Shown here: piece by piece, positions 3,862 to 59,170 of the stretch | Layout of the letters: every line of letters starts with the position of its first letter | Numbering within the stretch: position 1 is the first letter of the stretch | Source of the DNA: Alphaproteobacteria bacterium | GTDB lineage: Bacteria; Pseudomonadota; Alphaproteobacteria; RF32; CAG-239 | DNA: 64,000 nt | Direction of reading: 5' to 3' | Assembly (NCBI GenBank): GCA_044432975.1 | Contig: JAWXUC010000001.1 | Span: 212,604 to 276,603 of the forward strand | The notes under the pieces: model-generated | What the model was told of the DNA's origin: nothing | The model's input: the letters and a program-made list of their open reading frames with translations, nothing else | Databases searched by the model: none | Program-made: the position numbers and the translations under genes

Positions 3862-5283
3862 TCAAGAAAGTTTTTTAACAATCAAATCACTAACAATTGC
3901 AGGATTCGCCTTCCCTTTAGAAAACTTTAATGTTTGACCAACAAACCAACCTAACAAATTGTTACGTCCAGATTTATACGCATTAACATTGTCTGGATTA
4001 TTAGCAATTAATTCATCAATAAAAGCTTCAATTTCACTTAAGTTAGTTTCTTGTTTCAAGCCTTTTTCTTCAACAATTACAGAAGGATTTTGAGATGTCT
4101 CCCACATAATTTCAAAAACTTCTTTAGCAATTTTAGAGTTCAAAACCCCATCATTAATCAGGTTTACAAGCTCACCTATTTGTTTAGGAGAAACAGGAGA
4201 TTGACTTAATAACAAACCATCTTTTTTTAAGAAACCAAAAAAGTCTCCCATAATCCAGTTTGCAACTTTTTTAGCATCAGAACCCACAATAGCGTCTTCA
4301 AAAAACTTTGCGGTTTCTTTATCATCACACAACACCATTGCGTCATATTCTGTTAAACCCAAACCAACAAACCTAGCTTTTTTAGCCTCTGGCAATTCTG
4401 GCATATTATTTTTAATGCCATCAACATATTCTTGAGTTAACACCAAAGGTGGTAAATCTGGCTCAGGAAAATATCTATAATCATGAGCAAATTCTTTAGA
4501 ACGCAATGCTTTTGTAACTTGAGTTTGAGGATCAAAAGAACGTGTTTCTTGCGCCACTGTTCCGCCATTTTCATAAATTTCTGCCTGACGTTTTGCTTCT
4601 GCTTCAATTGCTTGCATCACAAATTTAACAGAGTTCATATTCTTCATCTCGCAACGTGTACGCAATTCTGTTGAGCCAATCGGACGGATTGAAACGTTAA
4701 CATCACAACGCATAGAACCCTCGTCCATATTACCATCACAAGTTTCAATATAGCGGAGCATAGAACGCAAACGTCTAATAAATTCTCCCACTTCTTCAGG
4801 AGTAGAAAAATCTGGGTGAGTAACAATCTCCATCAAACCAACACCAGCACGATTCAAGTCAATATAACTTTTATCTGGACTAATATCATGAATAGATTTT
4901 CCAGCATCTTGCTCGATGTGCAAGCGCTCGATTCTAATTTTTTTAGTCCCAATATCAAGACTTCCCTCACCTACGATAGGAAACTTAAATTGAGAAATTT
5001 GATACCCTTGAGGAAGATCCGCATAAAAATAATTCTTACGAGCAAATTCAGAATAAAGATTAATTTTTGCATTTAACCCTAAACCAGTTTTAACCGCTTG
5101 TTCAACACATTTTGCATTTAATGTTGGCAACATTCCTGGCATTCCCGCATCAATAAAAGATACATGAGAGTTTGCCTCAGCACCATATTGAGTAGAAGAA
5201 GGAGAAAAGATTTTTGATTCTGAAATTATTTGACAGTGAACTTCAATACCACAAACAATTTCCCATTTATCATTTATAATCAT
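3862..5283 (-). CDS. gatB: Asp-tRNA(Asn)/Glu-tRNA(Gln) amidotransferase subunit B
   Basis: 473 aa with GatB/GatE signatures ([22 protein letters not shown]) and a C-terminal GatB/YqeY domain. It sits in the gatC-gatA-gatB order. Confidence 0.95.
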
Positions 5284-9425: not shown

Positions 9426-10541
9426 TTAACCTTTAGATGTAAAATTATTATTAAAATTTTTTCTTTTTAACAAATCTTTTTGCGCTCTTTGAAAAACTGC
9501 AAAAATATTTGCATCAGAACGTCTTCTTTCAACAACAGAAGCAGAGACAGTTAATGCCAAAGGCTCTTTATATCCTTTCAACAAAAAGTCTGTTGTTGCA
9601 ATATTTCGTCTTAAAAATTCAACCTCTTCAAACGCATCATCAAAATCAATGTCTTCAAAAATAATAATAAAATCATCTCTTTTTATATGATAAACTTTCA
9701 CATGTTTTTCCTTAAAAATCCTTGCGATCATAAAAATTAATTTATTAACATTTTCTTGCCCAAATTTTTCTTGCAAATTTTTCATCTCATCAATACAAAT
9801 AAGAGCCAAAGAACATTTTATTATTTTTTCTTGAGAATAATTAAGAAAAGCATATTTATTTTTAACCTGACTTACAGGATTATAAACAACATTAAAATAC
9901 AAATAAAATGCAACACTCAAACAATAAATAATTAAAGCAACTCCAAAAAACATTGAAAAAGCACTAGTATTAAAAGCAAAATAATATCCCAACATCACAC
10001 ATAAAAAAGCAAAAAAGAAACCATAATATAAAACTTTATTCTTCACGCTAGAATATAAAAACAAAGCAAACGCAAAAATCAAACTTGTTATAATAAAATT
10101 ATATGGAATAAAAATATCTCTATCAGACAAATATTCAACAGCACAAATAATTCCTAAAAAAACAAACAAATAAATAAGATTTTTTTTAACCGCCAACCTT
10201 TTCTCTGGCACAAAAAAAGATAACGACAAACTAGTTATTAAAAAAACACCAAAATTATAATACAAAGGAGTTTCTAACAAAAAGTTATTTCTCAAATAAT
10301 TTAATACAAAGTAAGAAACAACCAAAGTCAATAAAAAGAAAACAGGTTTTAAAGCATTAAAAAACAACAACACAAAAAACAATAAAAAACTAACCGCAAT
10401 AAAACTATAATGATAAATAGATTGATAAACAGGTTCTATATTATCTTTAGCAAAAAACGTTAAAGAAGCAAACAAAAATATAATAGCAAAAAGCCCAAGC
10501 TTATAAAAATTAGCAAATACTTTTTCTAAAACATTATTCAT
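9426..10541 (-). CDS. Polytopic membrane protein with a C-terminal degenerate GGDEF-like domain
   Basis: About 7 TM helices are followed by a GGDEF-fold segment in which the active-site motif is replaced (HIKRDDFIIIF instead of R-GGDEF). Confidence 0.5.
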   Translation of the reverse strand: MNNVLEKVFANFYKLGLFAIIFLFASLTFFAKDNIEPVYQSIYHYSFIAVSFLLFFVLLFFNALKPVFFLLTLVVSYFVLNYLRNNFLLETPLYYNFGVFLITSLSLSFFVPEKRLAVKKNLIYLFVFLGIICAVEYLSDRDIFIPYNFIITSLIFAFALFLYSSVKNKVLYYGFFFAFLCVMLGYYFAFNTSAFSMFFGVALIIYCLSVAFYLYFNVVYNPVSQVKNKYAFLNYSQEKIIKCSLALICIDEMKNLQEKFGQENVNKLIFMIARIFKEKHVKVYHIKRDDFIIIFEDIDFDDAFEEVEFLRRNIATTDFLLKGYKEPLALTVSASVVERRRSDANIFAVFQRAQKDLLKRKNFNNNFTSKG

Positions 10542-42832: not shown

Positions 42833-44080
42833 ATGACACAGCGAGTAAAGAAAAAAATAACTCCCGAAGTTTTAGATAATTTTCTTAAAGGGCAAGAAGA
42901 CATCAAAGTCAAAGATACAGAAATATCTGGCTTCTATGTTTGGTATTATGCTGTCAGCGGGCGAAAAACATTTTTTATGCGTTATTATGCAAAAGAAGAG
43001 AAAAAAGAAAGAAACATCAAAATCGGCTGTTATCCAGACATTAGATTAAAAGAAGCAAGGGAAATTGCTTATGAATATAAATCAAGCGTTATCCGTGGTG
43101 GCAATCCAGTTGTAGAGATAAAACAACAACAAGAGGACGCTTACCAAGAAAAAGCCAATAATCTAAAAGTTAAAGTTGTTTTGCAAGAGTATTTAACTGA
43201 ATATACTGCTAGATATAACAAACCTCGCACATTAGAAATTCAAAAAGGTATTATAAAACGTTTTATAAACAAAGAAATTGGTAATATTTTTATCAAAGAA
43301 TTAAAACTATTAGATATAAATAAGCTTGTTTCAAAAGTAGGAGCTAAAACTCCTGCTCAAGCCAATCAATGCAAAGCCTTACTTTCTTGTTTTTTAAATT
43401 GGTGCGAAGATTATGGATATAGAGAGCTAAACTCAAATCCCTGCAGAAAAATAAAAAAGTTTAAATTGAAAGTTAGAGATAGAGTTTTATCGTTTGAAGA
43501 ATATGGACGTTTATTTGACGCAATAGAAAAAGGCAAAGAATATGATATATACGCCTCATCTTCCTTTGATATAATTAAATTTTTAGCTATTACAGGCTGT
43601 CGCTTATCAGAAGCCAAAGACTTAAAATGGGTTGAAGTTGATTTTAATAATAGCTTATTAAGATTATTAGATAGCAAAACGGGAGAAAAAGCCGTTCCAA
43701 TAGGCAATGAAGCACTTAATATATTAAAGGAAGCTTATAAGAAAAAGTCCTGTGAATACGTTTTTCCCTCTTCAAAACACGCTGGGCAACCATTCTTTGA
43801 TGTAAGAAGACCATGGTTCTTTATTAGAAAAGAGGCAAAACTAGATGGGCTTAGAATACACGACCTCCGCCATTCATTTGCAACCGCTGGCAGTATGATG
43901 GGCGAGAATATCGCAGTTATAGGAAGTGTTTTAGGGCATAGGCAAATATCAACAACACAAAGATATACCCATATAAATAACATTGCAGGAATAGAAGTTG
44001 CCAATAAGATTTCAAGCAAAATCATACAGATGTCTAAGCAATATTCCGAAGATTGCAATTTATTAGTCGCAAATGCTTAA
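42833..44080 (+). CDS. int: Tyrosine recombinase / phage integrase
   Basis: 415 aa whose C-terminal catalytic domain carries R...HDLRHSFAT...RYTH (catalytic Tyr). It lies adjacent to the tRNA-like att repeats. Confidence 0.9.
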   Translation: MTQRVKKKITPEVLDNFLKGQEDIKVKDTEISGFYVWYYAVSGRKTFFMRYYAKEEKKERNIKIGCYPDIRLKEAREIAYEYKSSVIRGGNPVVEIKQQQEDAYQEKANNLKVKVVLQEYLTEYTARYNKPRTLEIQKGIIKRFINKEIGNIFIKELKLLDINKLVSKVGAKTPAQANQCKALLSCFLNWCEDYGYRELNSNPCRKIKKFKLKVRDRVLSFEEYGRLFDAIEKGKEYDIYASSSFDIIKFLAITGCRLSEAKDLKWVEVDFNNSLLRLLDSKTGEKAVPIGNEALNILKEAYKKKSCEYVFPSSKHAGQPFFDVRRPWFFIRKEAKLDGLRIHDLRHSFATAGSMMGENIAVIGSVLGHRQISTTQRYTHINNIAGIEVANKISSKIIQMSKQYSEDCNLLVANA

Positions 44081-45564: not shown

Positions 45565-47469
45565 GTGTCAATTCTGAATAATCGTTCTAAAACAAAGGAA
45601 TATAAAGTTATGGATATTAAGAAACTAGATGGCAAGAGTTTGGATATTGAAAATGTTGATATAGAAAAGTTAAAAGCTATATTTCCTCAAGTTTTTATGG
45701 AAAATAAGCTTGATATTAGTAAGCTTCTTAATCTTTGTGGTGAATATATTGAGAGAGATGATGAAAAATATAAGTTTGAATGGAAAGGTAAATCTGATTG
45801 TTATAAGGTTGCTGGCAAGCGTTCTACAGGCACTTTGCGTCCTGCACCGCAAGAAAGTATAGATTTTGAAAATACTAATAATCTTTATATTGAGGGAGAT
45901 AATTTAGAAGTATTAAAACTCTTGCAAACTGCGTATTATCGCAAGGTTAAAATGATTTATATTGACCCTCCTTATAATACAGGCCATGATTTTGTTTATG
46001 AAGATGACTTCAAAGACCCAATTGCAAAATATAAAGAAATTACAGAACAAACAACCAAATCAAACGTTGAAACAATGGGTCGTTATCATACCAACTGGCT
46101 TAATATGATGTATCCAAGACTAAGGCTCGCCTCAAACCTTTTGCGTGATGATGGCGTTATTTTTATATCTATTGATGATAACGAAATAACCAACCTCCGC
46201 CGTTTATGCGATGAAGTATTTGGGGAAGAAAATTTTGTTGACTGTTTACATTGGAAGAAGAAAAAACAACCATCTTTCTTGGCTAAGCATACAGCAAAAG
46301 TTATGGAGTATGTTTTAATATACGCAAAAAACTTTAATAGCTTAGAAAAATTATCTATTGAAACTCTTTCTGACGCAACAAAAAAAGTTATTAACATTTC
46401 AAATCAAGAAACAAAAAGACGTTTTAGCAAAGGTGTAAGAGTAAAGATTGGAGATACAGGCGTAATAAAAGCTGGACGATATAAAGTAAAAACAATGGAA
46501 GTTGAATATTTACAAGATATATACTACCAAAATGGATTGACTACAAATGAAGTTGATGTTGTTTCCAAGTTTTCTGTTTCTCAAGATAAAATAGATAATT
46601 TCATTTCTGAAAATTTACTTTTTATCACAGAAAATAAAGGATTAAGAAGAGATGTCTCTGAAGAAGAAAAATTAAAAAGAAAATCTATTACTGATTTGTT
46701 ATTAAGCGAATATGGAGATAGCCAAGAAAGTGATAATGAGCAAAAAGAAATTTTTGGTGAAAGATTATTTGATTATACAAAGCCAACAAAACTAATATAT
46801 AATTTTACTAAATCTCTTTTATGCAATGATAATGATATTATTCTTGACTTTTTCTCGGGAAGTGGAACAACCGCCCACGCTGTTATGCAATTGAATGCTG
46901 ATGATAATATAAATCGTCAATTTATTGTTGCACAAATACCCGAGCAAACAGGACTAGAAGAATATAAAACCATTTGTGAAATAGGCAAAGAGCGTATTCG
47001 CCGTGCTGGGGCTAAGATTAAAGAGCAAAATCCAAATGTTGATACTGGCTTTAAGGTTTTCAAACTAGATACTTCAAATTTGAAAAAATGGGACGACACG
47101 CCTATTCAAGATGATGATGAGGCAACTTTGTTTGAGCGTATGAATGAAATGGAAAAAACATTAAAAACAGATAGAAACGAGCTAGATTTCATCTATGAAG
47201 TTATGTTAAAATTAGGTATTCCATTGACTTATAGCATTTCCATAATGCAAATTGGCACACGCAAAGTTTATTCTATCGGAGATGATAGCTTGATTTTAGT
47301 TTGTATTGATAGCTCTAGCGGTGGTATAACAGCCGAAGACATTACAGCAATGTGCGACATTGCCCCTGCCAAAATAGTCGCAAGCGAAGAAGCCTTTGCC
47401 GATGATGTTGCCCTCTCAAATGCTTATTATATAAGCAAAGATAAAAAAATAGAAATTGAGTTGTTGTAA
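45565..47469 (+). CDS. mod: Type III restriction-modification Mod subunit (N6-adenine DNA methyltransferase)
   Basis: 634 aa. Motif IV reads IYIDPPYNTG in the N-terminal half and the AdoMet motif I (FFSGSGTTAHA) lies in the C-terminal half. A variable target-recognition region lies between them. Confidence 0.85.
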   Translation: MSILNNRSKTKEYKVMDIKKLDGKSLDIENVDIEKLKAIFPQVFMENKLDISKLLNLCGEYIERDDEKYKFEWKGKSDCYKVAGKRSTGTLRPAPQESIDFENTNNLYIEGDNLEVLKLLQTAYYRKVKMIYIDPPYNTGHDFVYEDDFKDPIAKYKEITEQTTKSNVETMGRYHTNWLNMMYPRLRLASNLLRDDGVIFISIDDNEITNLRRLCDEVFGEENFVDCLHWKKKKQPSFLAKHTAKVMEYVLIYAKNFNSLEKLSIETLSDATKKVINISNQETKRRFSKGVRVKIGDTGVIKAGRYKVKTMEVEYLQDIYYQNGLTTNEVDVVSKFSVSQDKIDNFISENLLFITENKGLRRDVSEEEKLKRKSITDLLLSEYGDSQESDNEQKEIFGERLFDYTKPTKLIYNFTKSLLCNDNDIILDFFSGSGTTAHAVMQLNADDNINRQFIVAQIPEQTGLEEYKTICEIGKERIRRAGAKIKEQNPNVDTGFKVFKLDTSNLKKWDDTPIQDDDEATLFERMNEMEKTLKTDRNELDFIYEVMLKLGIPLTYSISIMQIGTRKVYSIGDDSLILVCIDSSSGGITAEDITAMCDIAPAKIVASEEAFADDVALSNAYYISKDKKIEIELL

Positions 47470-47507
47470 AAATTCTAATTACGGCGAATGTGCCATAATT
47501 AAAAATA

Positions 47508-47969
47508 ATGATAAGAAAGGAAAACAAAATGAAAAGAAACTTTGAAACTATGAAAACCATTTTTTCTAATGCTATACTTGCATTAGAAAAAAAAGATAAT
47601 ATACAAATATCCGATATTGTTGACAGTAAAAACAAAGACGAAGTATATAATTTTAATTTAATGATAGAAGATGCGTTCTTTAATACATGGATAGATCCAC
47701 TGGATAAGATTCAATTCATATCAAATCTAACAGGAAAAGGAGAGCGTTTCTTCAATTTAACTAAAAATCAAAATTTATTAGAGGAACTTGATTTAAAATA
47801 TAGTGATTTGTTGAGTGTTCTTTCAACAGAATCTATTCTTGAAAAAGCGGAATGGATTATAAAAAATGACACTCATTTTCATAATATGAATATAATGTAT
47901 AGAGAATCTGGCGAAAAAATATCATATAAAGATTTTTGCAAACAATTTTCTGAAAGTTTATTTAAATAA
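47508..47969 (+). CDS. Hypothetical protein inserted between mod and res
   Basis: 153 aa with no recognisable motif. It is very AT-rich. Confidence 0.4.
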   Translation: MIRKENKMKRNFETMKTIFSNAILALEKKDNIQISDIVDSKNKDEVYNFNLMIEDAFFNTWIDPLDKIQFISNLTGKGERFFNLTKNQNLLEELDLKYSDLLSVLSTESILEKAEWIIKNDTHFHNMNIMYRESGEKISYKDFCKQFSESLFK

Positions 47970-48107
47970 TGAAACTACAATTTACAAAACAAGGCACTCG
48001 TCATCCCGAACTTGTTTCGGGATCTCCAAAAGGTGTAGATGAGATGCTGAAACAAGTTCAGCATGACGAATTATGTGTTCGTGATAATGCTTTGGGGGTG
48101 TTTCAAT
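47969..48107 (+). pseudogene. Duplicated 5' end of res (MKLQFTKQ...) reading into the insertion; probable remnant
   Basis: A 26-nt identity with the true res start (AATGAAACTACAATTTACAAAACAAG) is followed by 38 unrelated codons that include the left inverted repeat. Confidence 0.4.
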
Positions 48108-48621
48108 GAAGCAAGGATATGTTTATATAATGACAAATAAATACAATACTACTTTTTATATTGGGGTAACAAGTAATATTGAGCGTCGTGTATATGAACA
48201 TAAAAATAATTTAGTTAAAGGTTTTACAGAAAAATATAATGCTCATAAATTGGTTTATATCGAGCAATATAACTTAGTAACAGAGGCAATTGCTAGAGAA
48301 AAACAATTAAAAAATTGGCACAGAGATTGGAAAATAAATTTAATTAAAAAACAAAATCCTAACTTTGAGGACTTATATACTCGGAAAATTTCTAATGCAC
48401 AAGAGATTTTAGAGATCCCGAAACAAGTTCGGGATGACGAGAGTGGAGTTCAGGATTACGGATTGGGAATTAGTGATGGCGAGTGCGTTATTTGGGAGAA
48501 CGAGTGTGGAGTTCGGGATGAAAGCTTGGAAATTAAGGGTGATTGTTTAGAGTTGTACGAAAATATCGTACAACTGAAGATTCCAAAAAGTATTAAGCAA
48601 ATTGCAAAGGATAAGAAATGA
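48106..48621 (+). CDS. GIY-YIG nuclease domain protein (YhbQ/COG2827-like) with a C-terminal extension
   Basis: Its N-terminus GYVYIMTNKYNTTFYIGVTSNIERRVYEHKNN carries GIY...YIG with the catalytic R/E residues. The stop overlaps the res ATG (ATGA). Confidence 0.75.
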   Translation: MKQGYVYIMTNKYNTTFYIGVTSNIERRVYEHKNNLVKGFTEKYNAHKLVYIEQYNLVTEAIAREKQLKNWHRDWKINLIKKQNPNFEDLYTRKISNAQEILEIPKQVRDDESGVQDYGLGISDGECVIWENECGVRDESLEIKGDCLELYENIVQLKIPKSIKQIAKDKK

Positions 48622-51600
48622 AACTACAATTTACAAAACAAGAATTTCAAACAAATGCTGTTGAGGCGGTGGCTGGATTGTTTAAGGGGCAAGAAGAAGA
48701 TTCTGCAACTTTTTCGATTGTTGATAATTCGGCTCAAACATCTTTCTTGGCTGGAGGCTTGGGCAATCAAATCTTGATTGATGATAAAACTTTGGCAGAA
48801 AACCTTAACGCTATTCAAAAACATAACTCTTTGCCATTGAGCGATGTTTTGCCCTCACCCGCAGGCAAGCCTGCGACCTCTCCCCAAATGGGAGAGGTGT
48901 TAAAAGGTCTTCCCGTTTCTATTGAAATGGAAACAGGAACAGGAAAGACCTATGTTTATATTAAAACTATTTTAGAGCTTAATAAACGTTATGGATTTTC
49001 AAAGTTTATTATTGTAGTGCCAAGCGTGGCTATTCGTGAGGGTGTGTTGCAATCTTTTAAAGATACCACAGAGCATTTCAAAAAAGAATATCCAAAAGCT
49101 TTATATAACTTTTTTATCTATAATTCTTCTCGCTTGAATGATGTTCGCCATTTTGCCCGTTCGCAAGATATACAAATTATGATTATCAACATTGACGCTT
49201 TCAAAAAGGCAGAAAATGTTATCAACCAAGAGCGTGCAGATGACGGAAATGGTAAAATTATCAAATATCTTCAAGATACTAACCCTGTTGTAATTATTGA
49301 TGAGCCTCAATCTGTTGATAATACCGACAAGGCAAAAGAGGCAATTGCAAGCCTTAATCCACTTTGCGTGCTTAGATATTCGGCGACACATCGTGAAAAG
49401 AATAATCTTGTTTATCGTTTAACCCCTGTTGACGCTTACAAAAAAGGCTTGGTTAAGCAAATATGCGTTATCTCTAATTCTGTAATCAATGACGCTAATA
49501 AACCATATATAGCCTTAAAATCTGTGTCTAATGCCAATGGCTTTACGGCTAAGATTGAGATTGATGTTGAGGGAAAAGACGCAAAAATAACTCGTAAAGC
49601 AATAACCATTAAGCCTGGAACAGACTTATATCTTGAATCTGGCAACCGCTCTTTATATGAGGGATATGCGGTGGCAGGAATAGATTGCACCGCTGGTTTT
49701 GAGGGTGTTGAGTTTGCAAATGGCGAATATGTGGCTCTTGGCAAGGCAATTGGCTCTGTTGATGATAATGTTCTTAAACGTTCGCAAATTTATCATACTA
49801 TTAAAACGCATTTTGATAAAGAGCTTCGCTATTTTGCAAAAGATATAAAGGTTTTATCATTATTTTTTATTGATGAGGTTAAGAAATACCGCACCGAAGA
49901 TGGCGAACAAGGTATTTATGCAAAAATGTTTGAAGAATGTTATAACGAGTTATTAGCAAAACCCAAATATGCCCCATTAAAAGAGCTATTTAATACAGAT
50001 GTTGTAAATGCCCATGATGGCTATTTTTCTCAAGATAAAAAAGGTGCTTACAAAAACACCAAAGGCGATACTCAAGCGGACGATACGACATATAATGTTA
50101 TTATGAAAGATAAGAAAAAGCTGTTGTCTTTTGATTGTCCTTTGCGTTTTATTTTCTCGCACTCTGCCCTAAAAGAGGGTTGGGATAATCCTAACGTATT
50201 CCAAGTTTGCACATTATTAGAACAAAAATCTGTTTTTACTTGTCGTCAAAAGATAGGTCGTGGATTGCGTTTATGTGTTAATCAACAAGGAGAGAGAATA
50301 GAAGATAAAAATATCAATATTCTTCACGTTGTGGCAAATGAAAACTTTGCGGATTTTGCCGATAAACTTCAAAAAGAGATTGAAGCAGAAACAGGTATGA
50401 AGTTTGGCACGCTAGAAATTAGCAATCTTCTTGGGCTAACTTATGAAGAAGAAGTTGAGGTTGAAAAGGAAATCACTCAAGAGCAAGCTCAAATAATTGT
50501 GGAAGTTATAGAGGCAAGCAATAATATTGAAGAGGCAAATATTCCCGAGCCTATCAAAGAACAAGTCAAAGATTTGATTAAAGAAGAAAAGCCAATTTCT
50601 GTGGCAACCCTTGTTAATAAAACTTATACCGAAGTTATTAAAGAAGAAAAAACTGTTGACTATGCCGAGGCAGTAGAAATGCTGGAAGATTTGAAAGAGC
50701 AAAAAATTATTTCAAAAGATGGCAAAATAAAAGATACCATGAAAGAGCAACTAAAAGCAGGAACATTAGATTTAGGCGAGCGTTGGTCTAATGCTAAAAA
50801 AAGAGCCGTTTTACAAGCCGTTCAAAAAGCAGACAACAAGCCTGTAATTAGGGACGCAAGCAAAGAGGTTTCTGTAAAGCTTAAAAAGCAAGCTTTTATT
50901 AGCCCCGAGTTTATGGAGTTATGGAACAAAATCAAACAAAAAACAACATATCGTGTGCAATTTGATTTAGAAGAATTAACAAAAAATGCAATTAAAGACT
51001 TAAAAGCAATGCCCCCAATTGCAACCGCTAAAATTATGACGCAAACTGCAGGGCTTGATGTTGCAAAAGCAGGTATTACTCACGTTGAGCAATCTACAAC
51101 AACAGAAGAGCTAAAACAAAATTATTACTCTTTGCCTGATATTTTGCGTTTAATATCTATCAAAACCTTGCTAAAACGCTCAACTGTTAATAAGATTATT
51201 CAAGATAGTGGCAGAGCAAAAGACTTTTTGAAAAATCCTCAAGAGTTTTATGAAAAAGCCTTGGAGATTATAGAGAAAAATCGCCATGCGTTGGCAATTG
51301 ACGGAATTAAATATATTAAGCTTGCTGGCGAAGAATATTATATGCAAGAGATTTTTGAGAGCCAAGAGCTTATTGCTAACCTAGATAAAAATGCGGTGGC
51401 GGTTAATAATAGCGTTTATGACCATGTTATTTATGATAGTTCAACTGTGGAATTGCCTTTTGCAAAAGCGTTAGATAATGATCCCGAAGTTAAAATGTTT
51501 TTCAAAATCCCAAGCCGATTTAAGATTGAAACCCCAATTGGCACATATAATCCCGACTGGGCGGTTTATTTAGAGAAAAACGGCGAACACAAACTTTATT

Positions 51601-51761
51601 TTGTGCTTGAAACCAAAGGCTCTAGTGATTTTCTTCAATTAAGACCAGAAGAAAAGCTAAAAATTCATTGTGGCGAGCAACACTTCAAAGCTCTTGAAAA
51701 CAATACAGTCTTCCCAAGCAAACCCGTTGTAAACTGGCAAGACTTTAAGAAGAGTATGTAA
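48618..51761 (+). CDS. res: Type III restriction enzyme Res subunit (SF2 helicase plus C-terminal PD-(D/E)xK endonuclease)
   Basis: 1047 aa with Walker A METGTGKTYV, the DEAH-like IIDEPQS, a C-terminal YNPDW...LETKG nuclease motif and long coiled-coil inserts. Confidence 0.85.
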   Translation: MKLQFTKQEFQTNAVEAVAGLFKGQEEDSATFSIVDNSAQTSFLAGGLGNQILIDDKTLAENLNAIQKHNSLPLSDVLPSPAGKPATSPQMGEVLKGLPVSIEMETGTGKTYVYIKTILELNKRYGFSKFIIVVPSVAIREGVLQSFKDTTEHFKKEYPKALYNFFIYNSSRLNDVRHFARSQDIQIMIINIDAFKKAENVINQERADDGNGKIIKYLQDTNPVVIIDEPQSVDNTDKAKEAIASLNPLCVLRYSATHREKNNLVYRLTPVDAYKKGLVKQICVISNSVINDANKPYIALKSVSNANGFTAKIEIDVEGKDAKITRKAITIKPGTDLYLESGNRSLYEGYAVAGIDCTAGFEGVEFANGEYVALGKAIGSVDDNVLKRSQIYHTIKTHFDKELRYFAKDIKVLSLFFIDEVKKYRTEDGEQGIYAKMFEECYNELLAKPKYAPLKELFNTDVVNAHDGYFSQDKKGAYKNTKGDTQADDTTYNVIMKDKKKLLSFDCPLRFIFSHSALKEGWDNPNVFQVCTLLEQKSVFTCRQKIGRGLRLCVNQQGERIEDKNINILHVVANENFADFADKLQKEIEAETGMKFGTLEISNLLGLTYEEEVEVEKEITQEQAQIIVEVIEASNNIEEANIPEPIKEQVKDLIKEEKPISVATLVNKTYTEVIKEEKTVDYAEAVEMLEDLKEQKIISKDGKIKDTMKEQLKAGTLDLGERWSNAKKRAVLQAVQKADNKPVIRDASKEVSVKLKKQAFISPEFMELWNKIKQKTTYRVQFDLEELTKNAIKDLKAMPPIATAKIMTQTAGLDVAKAGITHVEQSTTTEELKQNYYSLPDILRLISIKTLLKRSTVNKIIQDSGRAKDFLKNPQEFYEKALEIIEKNRHALAIDGIKYIKLAGEEYYMQEIFESQELIANLDKNAVAVNNSVYDHVIYDSSTVELPFAKALDNDPEVKMFFKIPSRFKIETPIGTYNPDWAVYLEKNGEHKLYFVLETKGSSDFLQLRPEEKLKIHCGEQHFKALENNTVFPSKPVVNWQDFKKSM

Positions 51762-54397
51762 TGAGCGAAACAAAATCTATATTTCCCAATCCTTATTCTG
51801 CTTTTGTTGAGGCTCGGCGATTGCGTGATTGTTTAGATGATAAAAACCTTGCCCCTATATTTGCCTCAACTAATATTAAAATATTGCCTTATCAGATTGC
51901 AGCAGCTGGCTTTACTTTGCGTTCAAAATACTTAAAAGGCTGTATTTTATGTGATGAGGGTTCGCTTGGTAAAACTTATGAGGCGTTGCTTGTGGTCGCT
52001 CAAAAATGGTATGAGGGCGTAGAAAATATTTTAATTGTATTGCCCGATAATCTTATTAACCAATGGAAAAACAAGCTAGAAAATGAATTTAATCTGCCTT
52101 TTCATTTATGGGAAGATGTTAAAAGCGGAAAATATTTGCAATCTCTTGACGCTATTATTCGCAAAGGCGGTGTTTCGTATTCTTTATTAGAAGAAAACAA
52201 ACGTAAAGATAAAATGGTTGGAATTTGCCTTATATCTTACAAACAAGCAATTCAAAACACAGAGCAGTTACAACAGTTTTCTTGGGATTTAGCTGTTTTT
52301 GATGAGGCAGACTTTTTATTCAAGCCCGAGAATAAGTCTGTTATTAGTTTAAAACAAAGCGTTGGCAATGCTTTTAAGCTTCTTTTAACTCCAACGCCTA
52401 TAACCTCAAGCATTATGGATATATATGGGCTAATTCATTTTATTGATGAAGATGTTTTGCCTGATAGTGATACTTTTTATAAACGCTATTTTAGAAAACC
52501 CGAGAATTATGCTGAATTATCAGAATGGGTTTCAAGGTTTGCTTTTAGAACCTTAAAAAGACAAGCCTCAAATTATGTTAATTTTACAAATCGCTTGCCT
52601 GCGGTTATCAATTATAAACTAACAGATGAAGAAAAAGAACTTTATGTTTTAATTGAAAAATACTTGAAGTTGCCCGTAAAGCAAGCATATCCAAGTATGG
52701 ACATCTATCAATTGACTTTAATGTTTTATCATACAATAGCCTCAAGTCCCAAGGCTTTTGCAAATATGCTTAAAAATCCAATAGAACGAGCAGACGCAGA
52801 AGAAAAAGAATTATTGTTGTCTATGCAAGAAAAAGCAGAAAATATTGCTATTAGTGGCAAAATGCAAGATTTATCACAAGCCTTAAAACAAGTATTCAAG
52901 CACTTAAAAGAAAATAAAGAGCCTCAAAAGGCAATTGTTTTTACCGAAAATAATACAACTCGTGAAGTGCTTTATGATTTATTGTCTAATTATAATATAA
53001 CCTCAAATATTGATGATTTTAGAAATGATAAAAGTATACAAATTTTGATTGCTTCCGATGAGCTGGCAAAAGGTTTAGATATTGAGTTTTGCCCCGTTGT
53101 TGTTAATTATGATTTATTATATAATGCGGTGGAAATGGAACAACGTATTTGCAGGTGCCACCGTCAAGGGCAAGTTTCTGATGTGCTAGTTATCAATATG
53201 CTATCGCCTGATAATTTTTCCGATGTTAGAGTTTTAGAGCTTATCAATAAACGCACTTTACAATTTCAAGGGATATTTGGTATGTCCGATGATATTGTTG
53301 GCAATTTTGATGAAAGCTTAAACGATGTTATTGCCAAACTCCGAGAAAATAAAGCTATACAAGAAGATTTTAGAAATAATTTGAAACAACATAGGCAAGA
53401 TAATGAAGATGTTGTCTTAGAGGCAGAAAACGAGCTTTTTACAACCTTTACAAAAAACATTTCTGATAAAATGACTGTTTCTCCCAAGTATATTGAAGAA
53501 CAAGCAGAAAATATAAATCATAATTTATGGGAACTTGCAAAATTTTATTTTAATCATTATGAGCCTTATTATATTATTGATGATGAGAATAAAACTCTAA
53601 CCTTAAAAGAAAACGAAGAACGCCCACTTTTGTTTTATTATAACAATGGCACGCAAAATATTCGTTATTATGGCAAAAATGCTTATGGAATGGCAAAAGA
53701 TTTTAAGCCTGCCACAGGGCGTATAAGTATTCTTTCAATTCTTGGCGAAAATATTTTATACAATATAAAAGTCGCAACCGCTGGCACAATTAAAAGAACA
53801 ACCTTTGAGCCTTGTGAAATTGCTTTTTATAACATAAGCTTGTATTCGGGGCGTAAATATATCAAAGAATTTGATGTTTTAATTGGTAAAACAAATAATG
53901 GAGAGATTATTCCAAGAAGCAAATGTCTTGAAATCCTTAATAACCCAGATATAGAAATAATTGAAGATGAAACTGCAAAATCTTATACTAAAACACAAAA
54001 AATCCCACAAATATCTGATTTGGAAAACAATCAAGAGTTAAGCTATCTGATAGATGAAATTAAAAATAATTATCAGCAAAAAGAAGTAAGCCGAGATGAC
54101 CTTGATTTAATTAAATTGACAGCGAATCGCAAAAAAGACTTACTAAAAGAAAGCGTTGATAATATAAAAAACAAGATAAAGAAATCAAAAGAAAATGCTA
54201 TTGATGACCGCCTTGAGGCTCTTAAACTGCAAAAACAAATGAGCGTTTTAGAAAAAGAGCTAAAACAAAAAGAAGAAAGTCTTTTCTTTGATCAAATAAA
54301 AATTGATGCCGAAATGGAAGAAAAAATCAATTCTTTTATCGAGCTTGATAAATTAGAGATAAGAGTAGAAACCTTGTTTAAGCTTTCAAGTTTATAA
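51761..54397 (+). CDS. SNF2-family ATPase with a ~380-aa C-terminal domain of unknown function
   Basis: It has motif I CDEGSLGKTYEAL, motif II FDEADFL, the SNF2 motif III LLLTPTPITSSIMDIYGLIHFI and motif VI QRICRCHRQGQ. The start overlaps the res stop (TAATG). Confidence 0.8.
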   Translation: MSETKSIFPNPYSAFVEARRLRDCLDDKNLAPIFASTNIKILPYQIAAAGFTLRSKYLKGCILCDEGSLGKTYEALLVVAQKWYEGVENILIVLPDNLINQWKNKLENEFNLPFHLWEDVKSGKYLQSLDAIIRKGGVSYSLLEENKRKDKMVGICLISYKQAIQNTEQLQQFSWDLAVFDEADFLFKPENKSVISLKQSVGNAFKLLLTPTPITSSIMDIYGLIHFIDEDVLPDSDTFYKRYFRKPENYAELSEWVSRFAFRTLKRQASNYVNFTNRLPAVINYKLTDEEKELYVLIEKYLKLPVKQAYPSMDIYQLTLMFYHTIASSPKAFANMLKNPIERADAEEKELLLSMQEKAENIAISGKMQDLSQALKQVFKHLKENKEPQKAIVFTENNTTREVLYDLLSNYNITSNIDDFRNDKSIQILIASDELAKGLDIEFCPVVVNYDLLYNAVEMEQRICRCHRQGQVSDVLVINMLSPDNFSDVRVLELINKRTLQFQGIFGMSDDIVGNFDESLNDVIAKLRENKAIQEDFRNNLKQHRQDNEDVVLEAENELFTTFTKNISDKMTVSPKYIEEQAENINHNLWELAKFYFNHYEPYYIIDDENKTLTLKENEERPLLFYYNNGTQNIRYYGKNAYGMAKDFKPATGRISILSILGENILYNIKVATAGTIKRTTFEPCEIAFYNISLYSGRKYIKEFDVLIGKTNNGEIIPRSKCLEILNNPDIEIIEDETAKSYTKTQKIPQISDLENNQELSYLIDEIKNNYQQKEVSRDDLDLIKLTANRKKDLLKESVDNIKNKIKKSKENAIDDRLEALKLQKQMSVLEKELKQKEESLFFDQIKIDAEMEEKINSFIELDKLEIRVETLFKLSSL

Positions 54398-57820: not shown

Positions 57821-59170
57821 ATGGATTTTAACATTATACTTCCCCCTGGAATACCAACATGGAAAATTGAGGATTTAGTCCCTTATGACAACAATCCCCG
57901 CACGCATAGTGAAGAGCAAATAAACCAGCTTGTTGCTAGCATTATTGAGTTTGGTTTTACTAATCCAATCTTGGTTGATAAAGAAAGCCGAGAAATTATC
58001 GCAGGTCATGGACGCTTAACCGCTGGTCGCCGTTTAGGAATGCCAAAAATTCCTGTTGTTGCTTTATCTCATTTAGATGAAACAAAACGCCGAAAACTTG
58101 TGATTGCCGACAATCAACTTGCCTTAAACGCTGGCTGGGATATGGATTTATTAGCCACAGAGCTTTCTGCGTTAAATGAAATGGGCGAAGATTTAGACGT
58201 TTTAGGCTTTGATGACAGTTTTCTTGACGATGTCTTAAAAGCAACTTTGGAGGAAGAAACAGGCGATAATTTAAAAAAAGAGTTTGGTTCTTTAGTAGAG
58301 CGTTTTGGCGTGCCACCATTTAGCATTTTAGAAGTTCGCAAAGGTTATTGGCAAAAAAGAAAAAATGCTTGGAAATCTATTATCGCCGAATACGGAGAAA
58401 GCCGTGAGGGAACTTTATTTTCTCCCGATACTTTTATTGCCGAAATGGGAACAGTTAGCTTGCTTGACCCTGTTTTGTGCGAAGTTTCTTTTAATTGGTT
58501 TGGCTTAGGTGCTGGCACAAAATGTGTTGACCCGTTTTGCGGTGATACAATGTTTGCTCATGTATGCTCGGCAAAAGGTGGAAGCTTTACAGGGATTGAA
58601 ATTCGTCCCGATCAAGTAGAGCTTAATAATCAGAAAAAAGAAGAATACAACCTAAATGCAAATTTTATTTGTGATGACGGAATAAATGTTTTGCAACACG
58701 TTGAAGAAAACAGCCAAGACCTTTTGTTTAGCTGTCCGCCTTATTTTGATTTAGAAGTATATAGCGATTTAGAAAAAGACGCAAGCAACCAAAAGGAATA
58801 TGATGATTTTATCAAAATTATTGATAAAGCCTTTGGGGACGCTATCAAAACCTTAAAAGATAATCGCTTTGCCACAATTGTCGTTAGCAATATCAGAAAC
58901 AAGAAAACAGGCTGTTATCGCAATTTCGTTGATGATGTTATTCGTATATTTCAAAAAAATGGAATGCACTTTTATAATGACATTATTCTAGTTGATTCTT
59001 TGGGTTCTGCCCCAAGAAGAGCTGCACATAATATGAAAAACAGAAAGGTTGTAAAAGTCCACCAAAATGTTTTAATTTTTTATAAAGGCAATCCACAAAA
59101 AATCAAAGAAGAGTTCACATCTGAGGTCTTTGTAGATAATTTTGCTGTGGAGGATAAAAACGAGGAATAG
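57821..59170 (+). CDS. ParB-like nuclease domain / DNA methyltransferase fusion protein
   Basis: The N-terminal ParB/Srx region reads PYDNNPRTHSEEQINQLVASIIEFGFTNPILVD...AGHGRL. The C-terminal amino-methyltransferase region carries LFSCPPYFD (motif IV) and VDPFCGDTMFA (motif I-like). Confidence 0.8.
   Translation: MDFNIILPPGIPTWKIEDLVPYDNNPRTHSEEQINQLVASIIEFGFTNPILVDKESREIIAGHGRLTAGRRLGMPKIPVVALSHLDETKRRKLVIADNQLALNAGWDMDLLATELSALNEMGEDLDVLGFDDSFLDDVLKATLEEETGDNLKKEFGSLVERFGVPPFSILEVRKGYWQKRKNAWKSIIAEYGESREGTLFSPDTFIAEMGTVSLLDPVLCEVSFNWFGLGAGTKCVDPFCGDTMFAHVCSAKGGSFTGIEIRPDQVELNNQKKEEYNLNANFICDDGINVLQHVEENSQDLLFSCPPYFDLEVYSDLEKDASNQKEYDDFIKIIDKAFGDAIKTLKDNRFATIVVSNIRNKKTGCYRNFVDDVIRIFQKNGMHFYNDIILVDSLGSAPRRAAHNMKNRKVVKVHQNVLIFYKGNPQKIKEEFTSEVFVDNFAVEDKNEE

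Follow-up and report, generated by a model that had tools for sequence, protein, structure and literature searches.

The first description of the Ssn family of GIY-YIG nucleases dates from 2025 (Chenal et al., Nat Commun 2025, PMC11893778). The members of this family, which include SsnA of Neisseria meningitidis, are single-domain enzymes of about 94 amino acids. They bind an oriented hairpin repeat (NTS/SRM) in single-stranded DNA only, and they cleave a few nucleotides to its 5' side; the family was reported to be inactive on double-stranded DNA. The consensus of the NTS is CGTCATTCCCGCGMAVGCGGGAATCYRG. Repeats lie near 71% of ssn genes and on both sides of 42%, and SsnA is a single-strand-DNA restriction mechanism in Neisseria. 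The authors likened the gene with its flanking repeats to REP/RAYT and to an insertion sequence, and the latter likeness is all that they note as to mobility (all from PMC11893778). Here we describe a gene of this kind within a Type III restriction-modification operon. It lies in a 64,000-nucleotide stretch of an alphaproteobacterial genome (from contig JAWXUC010000001.1), which we call the window; positions given without a locus name are those of the window. We think it probable that an Ssn/SRM unit entered the slot between the mod and res genes of this operon and duplicated the start of res, with the operon still expressible.

The gene in question, hereafter ssn, occupies 48106-48621 on the + strand. 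The sole domain detected in its product is GIY-YIG, at residues 4-78 (Pfam, E = 1.3e-16). When we compared the protein to the chromosome of N. gonorrhoeae with tblastn, it matched a 94-amino-acid open reading frame (ORF) that sits among 16 canonical NTS repeats within 3.3 kb (44.9% identity, E = 4e-20). In a pairwise BLASTP alignment, it is 45% identical to the SsnA orthologue of N. gonorrhoeae over 89 amino acids (E = 5e-29). The published rule for membership in the Ssn family is homology to SsnA at E < 1e-10 (PMC11893778), and the window protein falls within it. All 26 residues that are invariant in an alignment of 30 sequences are kept in the window protein, as are the catalytic residues, and the ratio of nonsynonymous to synonymous substitution rates for ssn (0.08-0.18) indicates purifying selection. 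There is also a weak similarity to the UPF0213 structure 1zg2 (E = 0.004), and there is no NCBIfam or PADLOC assignment. From these alignments, we are highly confident that the gene belongs to the Ssn family.

Thousands of Ssn homologues are found among 5.8 billion proteins, and nearly all of them have about 95 amino acids. Residues 1-95 of the window protein (48106-48390) align end to end with these homologues. The ORF itself encodes 171 amino acids; because the homologues are nearly all so short, we consider the last 76 codons (codons 96-171) to be a read-through extension. The extension has no Pfam domain and ends on the res ATG.

Three hairpins accompany ssn. A reading of the window from its letters alone (the sequence-only reading) had described perfect 30-nucleotide inverted repeats, each one itself a hairpin, around the GIY-YIG coding sequence. 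The inverted repeat CTCGTCATCCCGAACTTGTTTCGGGATCTC is indeed exact, at 47997-48026 (+ strand) and 48412-48441 (- strand), with the right arm 1 nucleotide away from the 48411-48440 first given, and its arms reach 35 nucleotides at 97% identity (47997-48031 and 48407-48441). Although the arms do enclose the sequence for the catalytic domain (residues 4-78), the ORF does not end before the right arm and continues across it. Each arm can fold as a hairpin with an 8-bp stem (-7.3 kcal/mol), as had been claimed; in the left arm, CGTCAT is at 47999-48004, and the stem is formed by 48003-48010 and 48016-48023. The sequence-only reading missed a third copy of the hairpin at 48041-48069 on the - strand (GAGATGCTGAAACAAGTTCAGCATGACGA, 86% complementary), whose GCTGAA stem has compensatory changes, as well as the degenerate half-copies, similar to GTTCGGGATGA, that follow the right SRM at 48428-48535 (+ strand). 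The order in the unit is SRM(+), SRM(-), ssn, SRM(-). Every SRM copy folds as a single-stranded DNA hairpin with an 8-bp stem (z of -3.4 to -4.6), and the left arm and the second SRM together form a near-palindromic doublet (-20.4 kcal/mol, z of -6). The window hairpins share CGTCAT, a stem, and ATC with the published NTS; their inner stem and loop (CCCGAA-CTTGT-TTCGGG) are unlike it.

Similar hairpins accompany ssn elsewhere. We examined 80 homologous loci from species-representative genomes (candidate phyla radiation, Bacteroidota, Gastranaerophilales, Proteobacteria, and others), and this type of hairpin was near ssn in all 80 of them, across many phyla. Most of these loci have one copy 30-70 nucleotides upstream of the ATG on the + strand and another 30-50 nucleotides downstream of the stop on the - strand. 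The outer stem covaries: among 473 sites anchored on the left half, 285 are perfectly paired, with six types of stem, versus 3 in a shifted control. Arrays of half-repeats like the one at 48428-48535 are also found in loci L005, L006, and L015 and upstream of Neisseria ssnA. No Rfam family covers the hairpins; the sole gathering-level Rfam match in the window is a tRNA. By this comparison, the perfect inverted repeats around the GIY-YIG gene are the ordinary, published Ssn/SRM architecture. Since the same type of hairpin flanks ssn in every genomic context, the hairpins belong to ssn and not to res.

The other salient feature is a direct repeat. The 26 nucleotides AATGAAACTACAATTTACAAAACAAG occur exactly at 47968-47993 and at 48617-48642, where they include the res ATG and its first eight codons; there are two copies in the window, and shuffled sequences give an expectation of zero. 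The repeat lengthens to 31 nucleotides at 94% identity (from 47963 and 48612), and the match at the TAA just outside the 26-mer is imperfect. The second copy is the functional start of res (48618-51761). The first copy now starts a 46-codon ORF (ORF46, 47969-48109), which encodes the remnant of the res start and reads through two SRM hairpins (…RHPELVSGS…MLKQVQHD…). The left SRM begins 5 nucleotides past the end of the first copy. On its left side, the insert has its edge 5 nucleotides 5' of CGTCAT, which is roughly where SsnA cuts single-stranded DNA. On the direct repeat, on the ORF that it opens, and on the overlap of the ssn stop with the res ATG, the sequence-only reading was correct.

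These ORFs form an unbroken chain. It begins with ORF153 (47508-47969), an orphan accessory ORF in the mod-res slot whose stop overlaps the duplicated res ATG (TAATG); ORF46 then overlaps the ATG of ssn (ATGA), and ssn overlaps the ATG of res (ATGA). ORF153 has no match in Pfam, NCBIfam, or PADLOC, and its only match among the 5.8 billion proteins is itself. Upstream of the chain is mod, which encodes a Type III methyltransferase (45565-47469, + strand; Pfam N6_N4_Mtase, E = 3e-35; PADLOC MTase_III, E = 5e-178). The product of res is a helicase-nuclease (+ strand; Pfam ResIII and RE_endonuc; PADLOC REase_III, E = 1e-283). With mod and res in one operon, PADLOC and Pfam identify a Type III restriction-modification system. 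The repeat structure is real: contigs from four independent Logan runs have 0 mismatches to the window, and one of them (L002) spans 46971-50744 with all of the direct and inverted repeats.

The operon seems to have remained expressible, because there is no terminator on the + strand between mod and res and because every ORF overlaps the next. Promoter-like sites between mod and res are not enriched. The own stop of ssn is missing, and the 76 codons that continue through the right hairpin and the half-repeats are free of stops in just 0.16% of shuffles (p = 0.0016); both of the other frames across the extension contain several stops. The 38 codons of ORF46 after the repeat are also free of stops (p ≈ 0.08). 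The stop-free extension and the overlap of ssn with res suggest selection for continued translation into res, and we have moderate confidence in translational coupling from ssn to res.

The nearest relatives of the window's Res lack the unit, which agrees with the earlier proposal of an insertion; the segment looks like an acquired cassette. The closest relative, at locus L096 (Res is 83% identical and the C-terminus of Mod is 81% identical), has a gene with an AbiTii domain in the mod-res slot (505-1176 of L096), and L097 (Res is 71% identical) has DUF6602 and Bro-N genes there (1347-3117 of L097). Neither locus has an ssn or other GIY-YIG gene, or the hairpins, upstream of res, and none of 160 further relatives of Res have ssn. 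In this family of Res proteins, accessory genes of various kinds (AbiTii, DUF6602, Bro-N, and ORF153) occupy the mod-res interval. Among 74 relatives of Res from viral contigs, mod and res are within 100 nucleotides of each other in 49 and over 500 nucleotides apart in 19, and the spacing is similar for relatives from JGI metagenomes.

A second locus, L190, offers an analogue of the duplication. An exact 17-mer, GAGGCATTATAAAATGA, is present there in two copies, one at the 3' end of ssn (1872-1888 of L190) and one at the res ATG (2210-2226). It comprises the last three codons of ssn, the stop, one more base, and the ATGA of res. The two copies bracket 321 nucleotides that include an SRM doublet, which matches the one upstream of ssn at 81% identity. 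The repeat and the insert imply that ssn and res used to abut at L190 and were split by a hairpin-bearing insert, whose duplication rebuilt the start of res. This is an independent analogue of the 26-nucleotide duplication in the window, where it had been proposed that the insert restored the start of res; the duplicated 26 nucleotides do regenerate it.

The scenario that we prefer, in which we have moderate confidence given these comparisons, is as follows. The segment at 47994-48616 is an Ssn/SRM unit, with a small GIY-YIG nuclease gene and three cognate hairpins. Judging from SsnA, the product would bind the hairpin in single-stranded DNA only, with cleavage a few nucleotides to the 5' side. 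The unit would have entered the accessory-gene slot between mod and res and landed after codon 8 of res. Its entry would have duplicated 26 (or perhaps 31) nucleotides of the target, which would leave an intact res start downstream of the insert. The duplication would have arisen by repair synthesis or template switching and not by a transposase with a fixed stagger: its length varies (17 nucleotides at L190 and 26-31 nucleotides in the window), and the match at the TAA is imperfect, both of which fit repair or template switching better. Finally, with the loss of the ssn stop, ribosomes would be able to traverse the right hairpin along 76 stop-free codons and arrive at the res ATG.

Several observations weigh against this scenario. 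First, long flanking duplications are not a trait of the family: across 77 loci, the median length of the longest flanking repeat is just 11 nucleotides. We had considered whether a long duplication of host sequence might be a general hallmark of Ssn units, and we rejected this, as the long flanking repeats at these loci are SRM arrays. (A 7-nucleotide repeat, GTAATGT, at the edges of the L005 cassette was judged to be due to chance, and it is out of frame for an ancestral overlap.) Second, copy 2 of the direct repeat is 175 nucleotides past the right SRM, so there is no symmetric unit bounded by hairpins. Third, the published SRM pattern, HGTCWYN(0-2)YYVSBRHN(0-5)WNVSBRGN(0-2)RNCYNB, has 0 matches in the window, although it does match the canonical NTS; the window hairpins depart from it at two positions in the inner stem. 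That pattern was made by hand for searching and does not define the repeats, and we used a structural search in its place. Fourth, we did not find an empty-site allele (with the empty site TTTAAATAATGAAACTACAATTTACAAAACAAGAATTTCAAAC) of this exact locus, and a search of viral contigs for an exact empty-site sequence found none. Fifth, the leader that precedes copy 2 (AAGGATAAGAAATG) is closer to the native res leader of L096 (AAGGCAAAAAAATG) than is the context of copy 1, which slightly favors a resident ssn. Sixth, ssn lies at the mod-res junction in four other lineages of Type III systems, and it could be old in this family of operons. The duplication in the window could also stem from another rearrangement, such as the entry of ORF153 with a 5' fragment of res. 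A scenario with a resident ssn involves the same number of events as the insertion of the unit, and parsimony does not separate them.

These last points bring us to the alternative that survives best: ssn may be a long-standing and selected third gene of the Type III operon family, with the 26-nucleotide repeat due to a later local rearrangement, either the insertion of ORF153 with a 5' fragment of res or recombination with another Type III locus. A resident ssn could extend a double-strand system to the restriction of single-stranded DNA, much as SsnA is a restriction mechanism for single-stranded DNA in Neisseria (PMC11893778). The nearest homologues of the window's ssn are 74-78% identical to it, and four groups of them sit between mod and res: L005-L014 (Res is 41% identical to the window's), L015/L098-100 (69-70%), L185-187 (68%), and L190, where only the later hairpin-bearing insert parts ssn from res. 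With the window, this makes five Type III lineages in which ssn occupies that interval. The first three of these groups have a hairpin doublet upstream of ssn, and the stop of ssn overlaps or abuts the res ATG, as it did in L190 before the later insert. Purifying selection on ssn fits this alternative as well, and so does the codivergence of ssn (89% identity) with Res (79%) between L015 and L185.

Against a resident ssn, the gene is missing from the nearest relatives (L096 and L097) and from the 160 others, and equally similar ssn genes adjoin alaS or rplS in housekeeping regions. The similarity of ssn (74-82%) does not follow that of Res (41-70%): ssn is 82% identical between L005 and L015 versus 43% for Res, and 75% identical between the window and L015 versus 70% for Res. 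The window has the full unit with hairpins on both sides, which is typical of loci outside of restriction operons; L005-L014, L015/L098-100, and L185-187 have no downstream hairpin and no duplication of res. PADLOC does not include such a system, and our literature search did not find any paper that links Ssn to Type III systems. The sequence-only reading held that the mobile-element view would fail if all homologous mod-res operons had the same gene at this position without repeats, as an ancestral third subunit. This is borne out in part, as the nearest homologues occupy the mod-res junction in the four other lineages without the duplication of res, and ssn may therefore be an accessory gene resident in the operon. 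We consider this alternative, with either route to the repeat, to be an appreciable but minority prospect.

More broadly, the 80 ssn loci that are more distant include none near a Type III system. The distribution of ssn requires more than one gain or loss. For example, in the clade of L097, L098, and L185 (Res is 77-80% identical), ssn is present in two members and absent from one. The distribution is compatible with repeated entry within one group of hosts or with a single capture followed by exchange and loss.

A less likely alternative is that the hairpins mainly regulate in cis, by tuning the expression of res relative to mod as RNA structures, as attenuators, or as the ends of an invertible 375-bp segment, and that ssn is incidental. 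The hairpins immediately precede res, the fold of the doublet is strong, the 35-bp arms could support inversion, and the open frames suggest that ribosomes must traverse the hairpins. However, the hairpins' attachment to ssn in every genomic context does not fit a role in tuning res. Similarly, no T-runs follow the hairpins, neither a terminator on the + strand nor an Rfam match was found, and the four independent assemblies have one orientation only. We consider this explanation to be unlikely.

The sequence-only reading also proposed a homing-endonuclease-like insertion, in which a free-standing GIY-YIG enzyme would cut the res start in double-stranded empty alleles and be copied in by repair. 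Phage Seg and Mob genes sit between or inside conserved genes. The GIY-YIG domain, the similar location of the window gene, and its patchy presence among related res genes agree with this idea. However, the core of about 95 amino acids, which is 45% identical to the SsnA orthologue, has no DNA-binding domain, and the match to the group I intron endonuclease profile (NCBIfam TIGR01453) has just 23 bits versus a cutoff of 56. The genomic settings of its relatives are many and unrelated, yet each relative has hairpins of its own, and our search for phage homologues of the window's Ssn found none. Since the family cuts single-stranded DNA only and is inactive on double-stranded DNA (PMC11893778), homing is very improbable. 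Finally, it is hardly credible that the repeats are an artifact of assembly: three of the four Logan contigs shown do start at 48039/48040, inside the palindromic doublet, but contig L002 crosses all of the repeats without a mismatch, and the NCBI metagenome-assembled genome and the Logan assemblies agree. The repeats persist in independent assemblies, and the contig starts are breaks caused by the palindrome, not the junction of a variant. We ruled out an alternative junction or an inversion at these breaks, as the contigs are otherwise identical to the window and merely end in the palindrome.

A stronger proposal can also be made: that Ssn/SRM units are active mobile cassettes that leave long duplications of variable length, that they have repeatedly colonized or been recruited to the mod-res junction in one group of hosts, and that ssn, chained to res, may add single-strand-DNA restriction. 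We consider this broader proposal to be rather doubtful. The window and L190 provide concrete footprints, that is, hairpin-bearing inserts bracketed by duplications of 17-26 nucleotides, each of which rebuilds the start of a gene. If the mobile-cassette proposal is true, these would be the first footprint of how Ssn/SRM units move. The link between ssn and Type III systems is recurrent; if it is functional, it would combine defenses against double-stranded and single-stranded DNA, and if the units are selfish, it shows how they can reside in an operon without shutting it down.

SRMs are also found inside coding sequences. In the mod of L015, at about position 2290-2400, an SRM doublet with half-repeats is inserted in frame and adds 36 amino acids (FSSRHAKLQNRHAELVSASHGIPKQVRDDGVGVRDD). 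The same element is in L098-L100 at about 4035-4120, and it is absent from four related Mods. L009 also has an SRM doublet inside the mod ORF, and L098 has more SRM copies in a second methyltransferase gene (9466-9930). These in-frame doublets and additional copies imply that SRMs spread alone into coding sequence. In this respect, the earlier description of the element as like a miniature inverted-repeat transposable element (MITE) was partly right, as hairpin doublets do insert on their own; the unit in the window is a coding one.

Four of the loci with ssn are informative about mod itself. Among L005-L008, ssn is identical and res is 98% identical, but identity in mod falls to 65-72%. Only the central target-recognition region (at about 1500-2300) has diverged, a pattern that indicates swapping of specificities. 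We considered whether the hairpins might be the breakpoint for swapping of mod alleles and rejected this: the variable part is central, and the 3' end of mod is conserved up to the hairpins.

Other features of the window are near the operon or within res. At 48849-48893, res has an in-frame insertion of 45 nucleotides (LPSPAGKPATSPQMG) that is absent from five relatives of Res. Within it, two G+C-rich hairpins form side by side (-16 kcal/mol, z of -5), and this hairpin pattern occurs once in the window. On the - strand, 48851-48900 resembles Rfam's whalefall-1, with a score of 29.6 bits that is below the gathering threshold of 37 (E = 2.9e-5). This looks like a second, unrelated palindromic element that was inserted in frame. 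The final base of the res stop codon is also the first base of a gene for an SNF2-family helicase (51761-54397), which resembles DrmD of the DISARM system (269 bits, far below the curated cutoff). SNF2 genes also follow res in L185-187 and are found further downstream in L098-100 and L097, which suggests a conserved arrangement of Type III systems with SNF2. An ORF similar to tyrosine integrases lies upstream of the operon (42833-44080), a fusion of ParB-N to a methyltransferase lies downstream (57821-59170), and many of the relatives of Res are on viral contigs in IMG/VR. Taken as a whole, the region may be a mobile element that became integrated.

How does the unit compare with known systems? 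It is not a MITE: it encodes a conserved protein, the right direct repeat is 175 nucleotides past the right arm, and the duplication is 26 nucleotides long. Phage GIY-YIG homing endonucleases such as Seg and I-TevI share its catalytic fold, its intergenic or gene-start position, and its patchy presence; unlike them, the window's Ssn has no DNA-binding domain, has its own flanking hairpins, and belongs to a family that is inactive on double-stranded DNA. Rickettsia palindromic elements are short palindromes that occur as in-frame insertions in genes for proteins, as do the SRM doublet of the L015 mod and the double hairpin of the window's res, but the sequences are different, and a cognate nuclease is proposed for SRMs and is not established for the Rickettsia elements. 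REP/BIME-RAYT and IS200/IS605 are similar in having a small nuclease gene, flanking inverted hairpins that also occur as doublets elsewhere, and recognition of hairpins in single strands. They differ in their enzyme: the window's is a hydrolytic GIY-YIG nuclease and not a Y1 HUH transposase (GIY-YIG is the only Pfam match). We know of no strand-transfer chemistry for Ssn-type GIY-YIG nucleases. The insertion of IS200/IS605 elements is not known to duplicate the target, whereas 26 nucleotides are duplicated here.

The closest system remains the Ssn nucleases with their NTS/SRM repeats (PMC11893778). The window unit shares with them the GIY-YIG core of about 95 amino acids, oriented hairpins (CGTCAT...ATC) on both sides, and adjoining arrays of half-repeats. 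Unlike them, it has a different inner stem and loop, so that the published search pattern misses its hairpins, and an ORF of 171 amino acids that runs through a hairpin; it has three hairpin copies in the 64-kb window versus hundreds across the genome in Neisseria; it is embedded in, and chained by its ORF to, a Type III restriction operon; and it is bracketed by a 26-nucleotide duplication of host coding sequence. Overall, the gene and its hairpins as a unit are already known, and what is modestly new is the recurrent position in Type III operons, the long duplications that rebuild res, and the extended, chained ORF.

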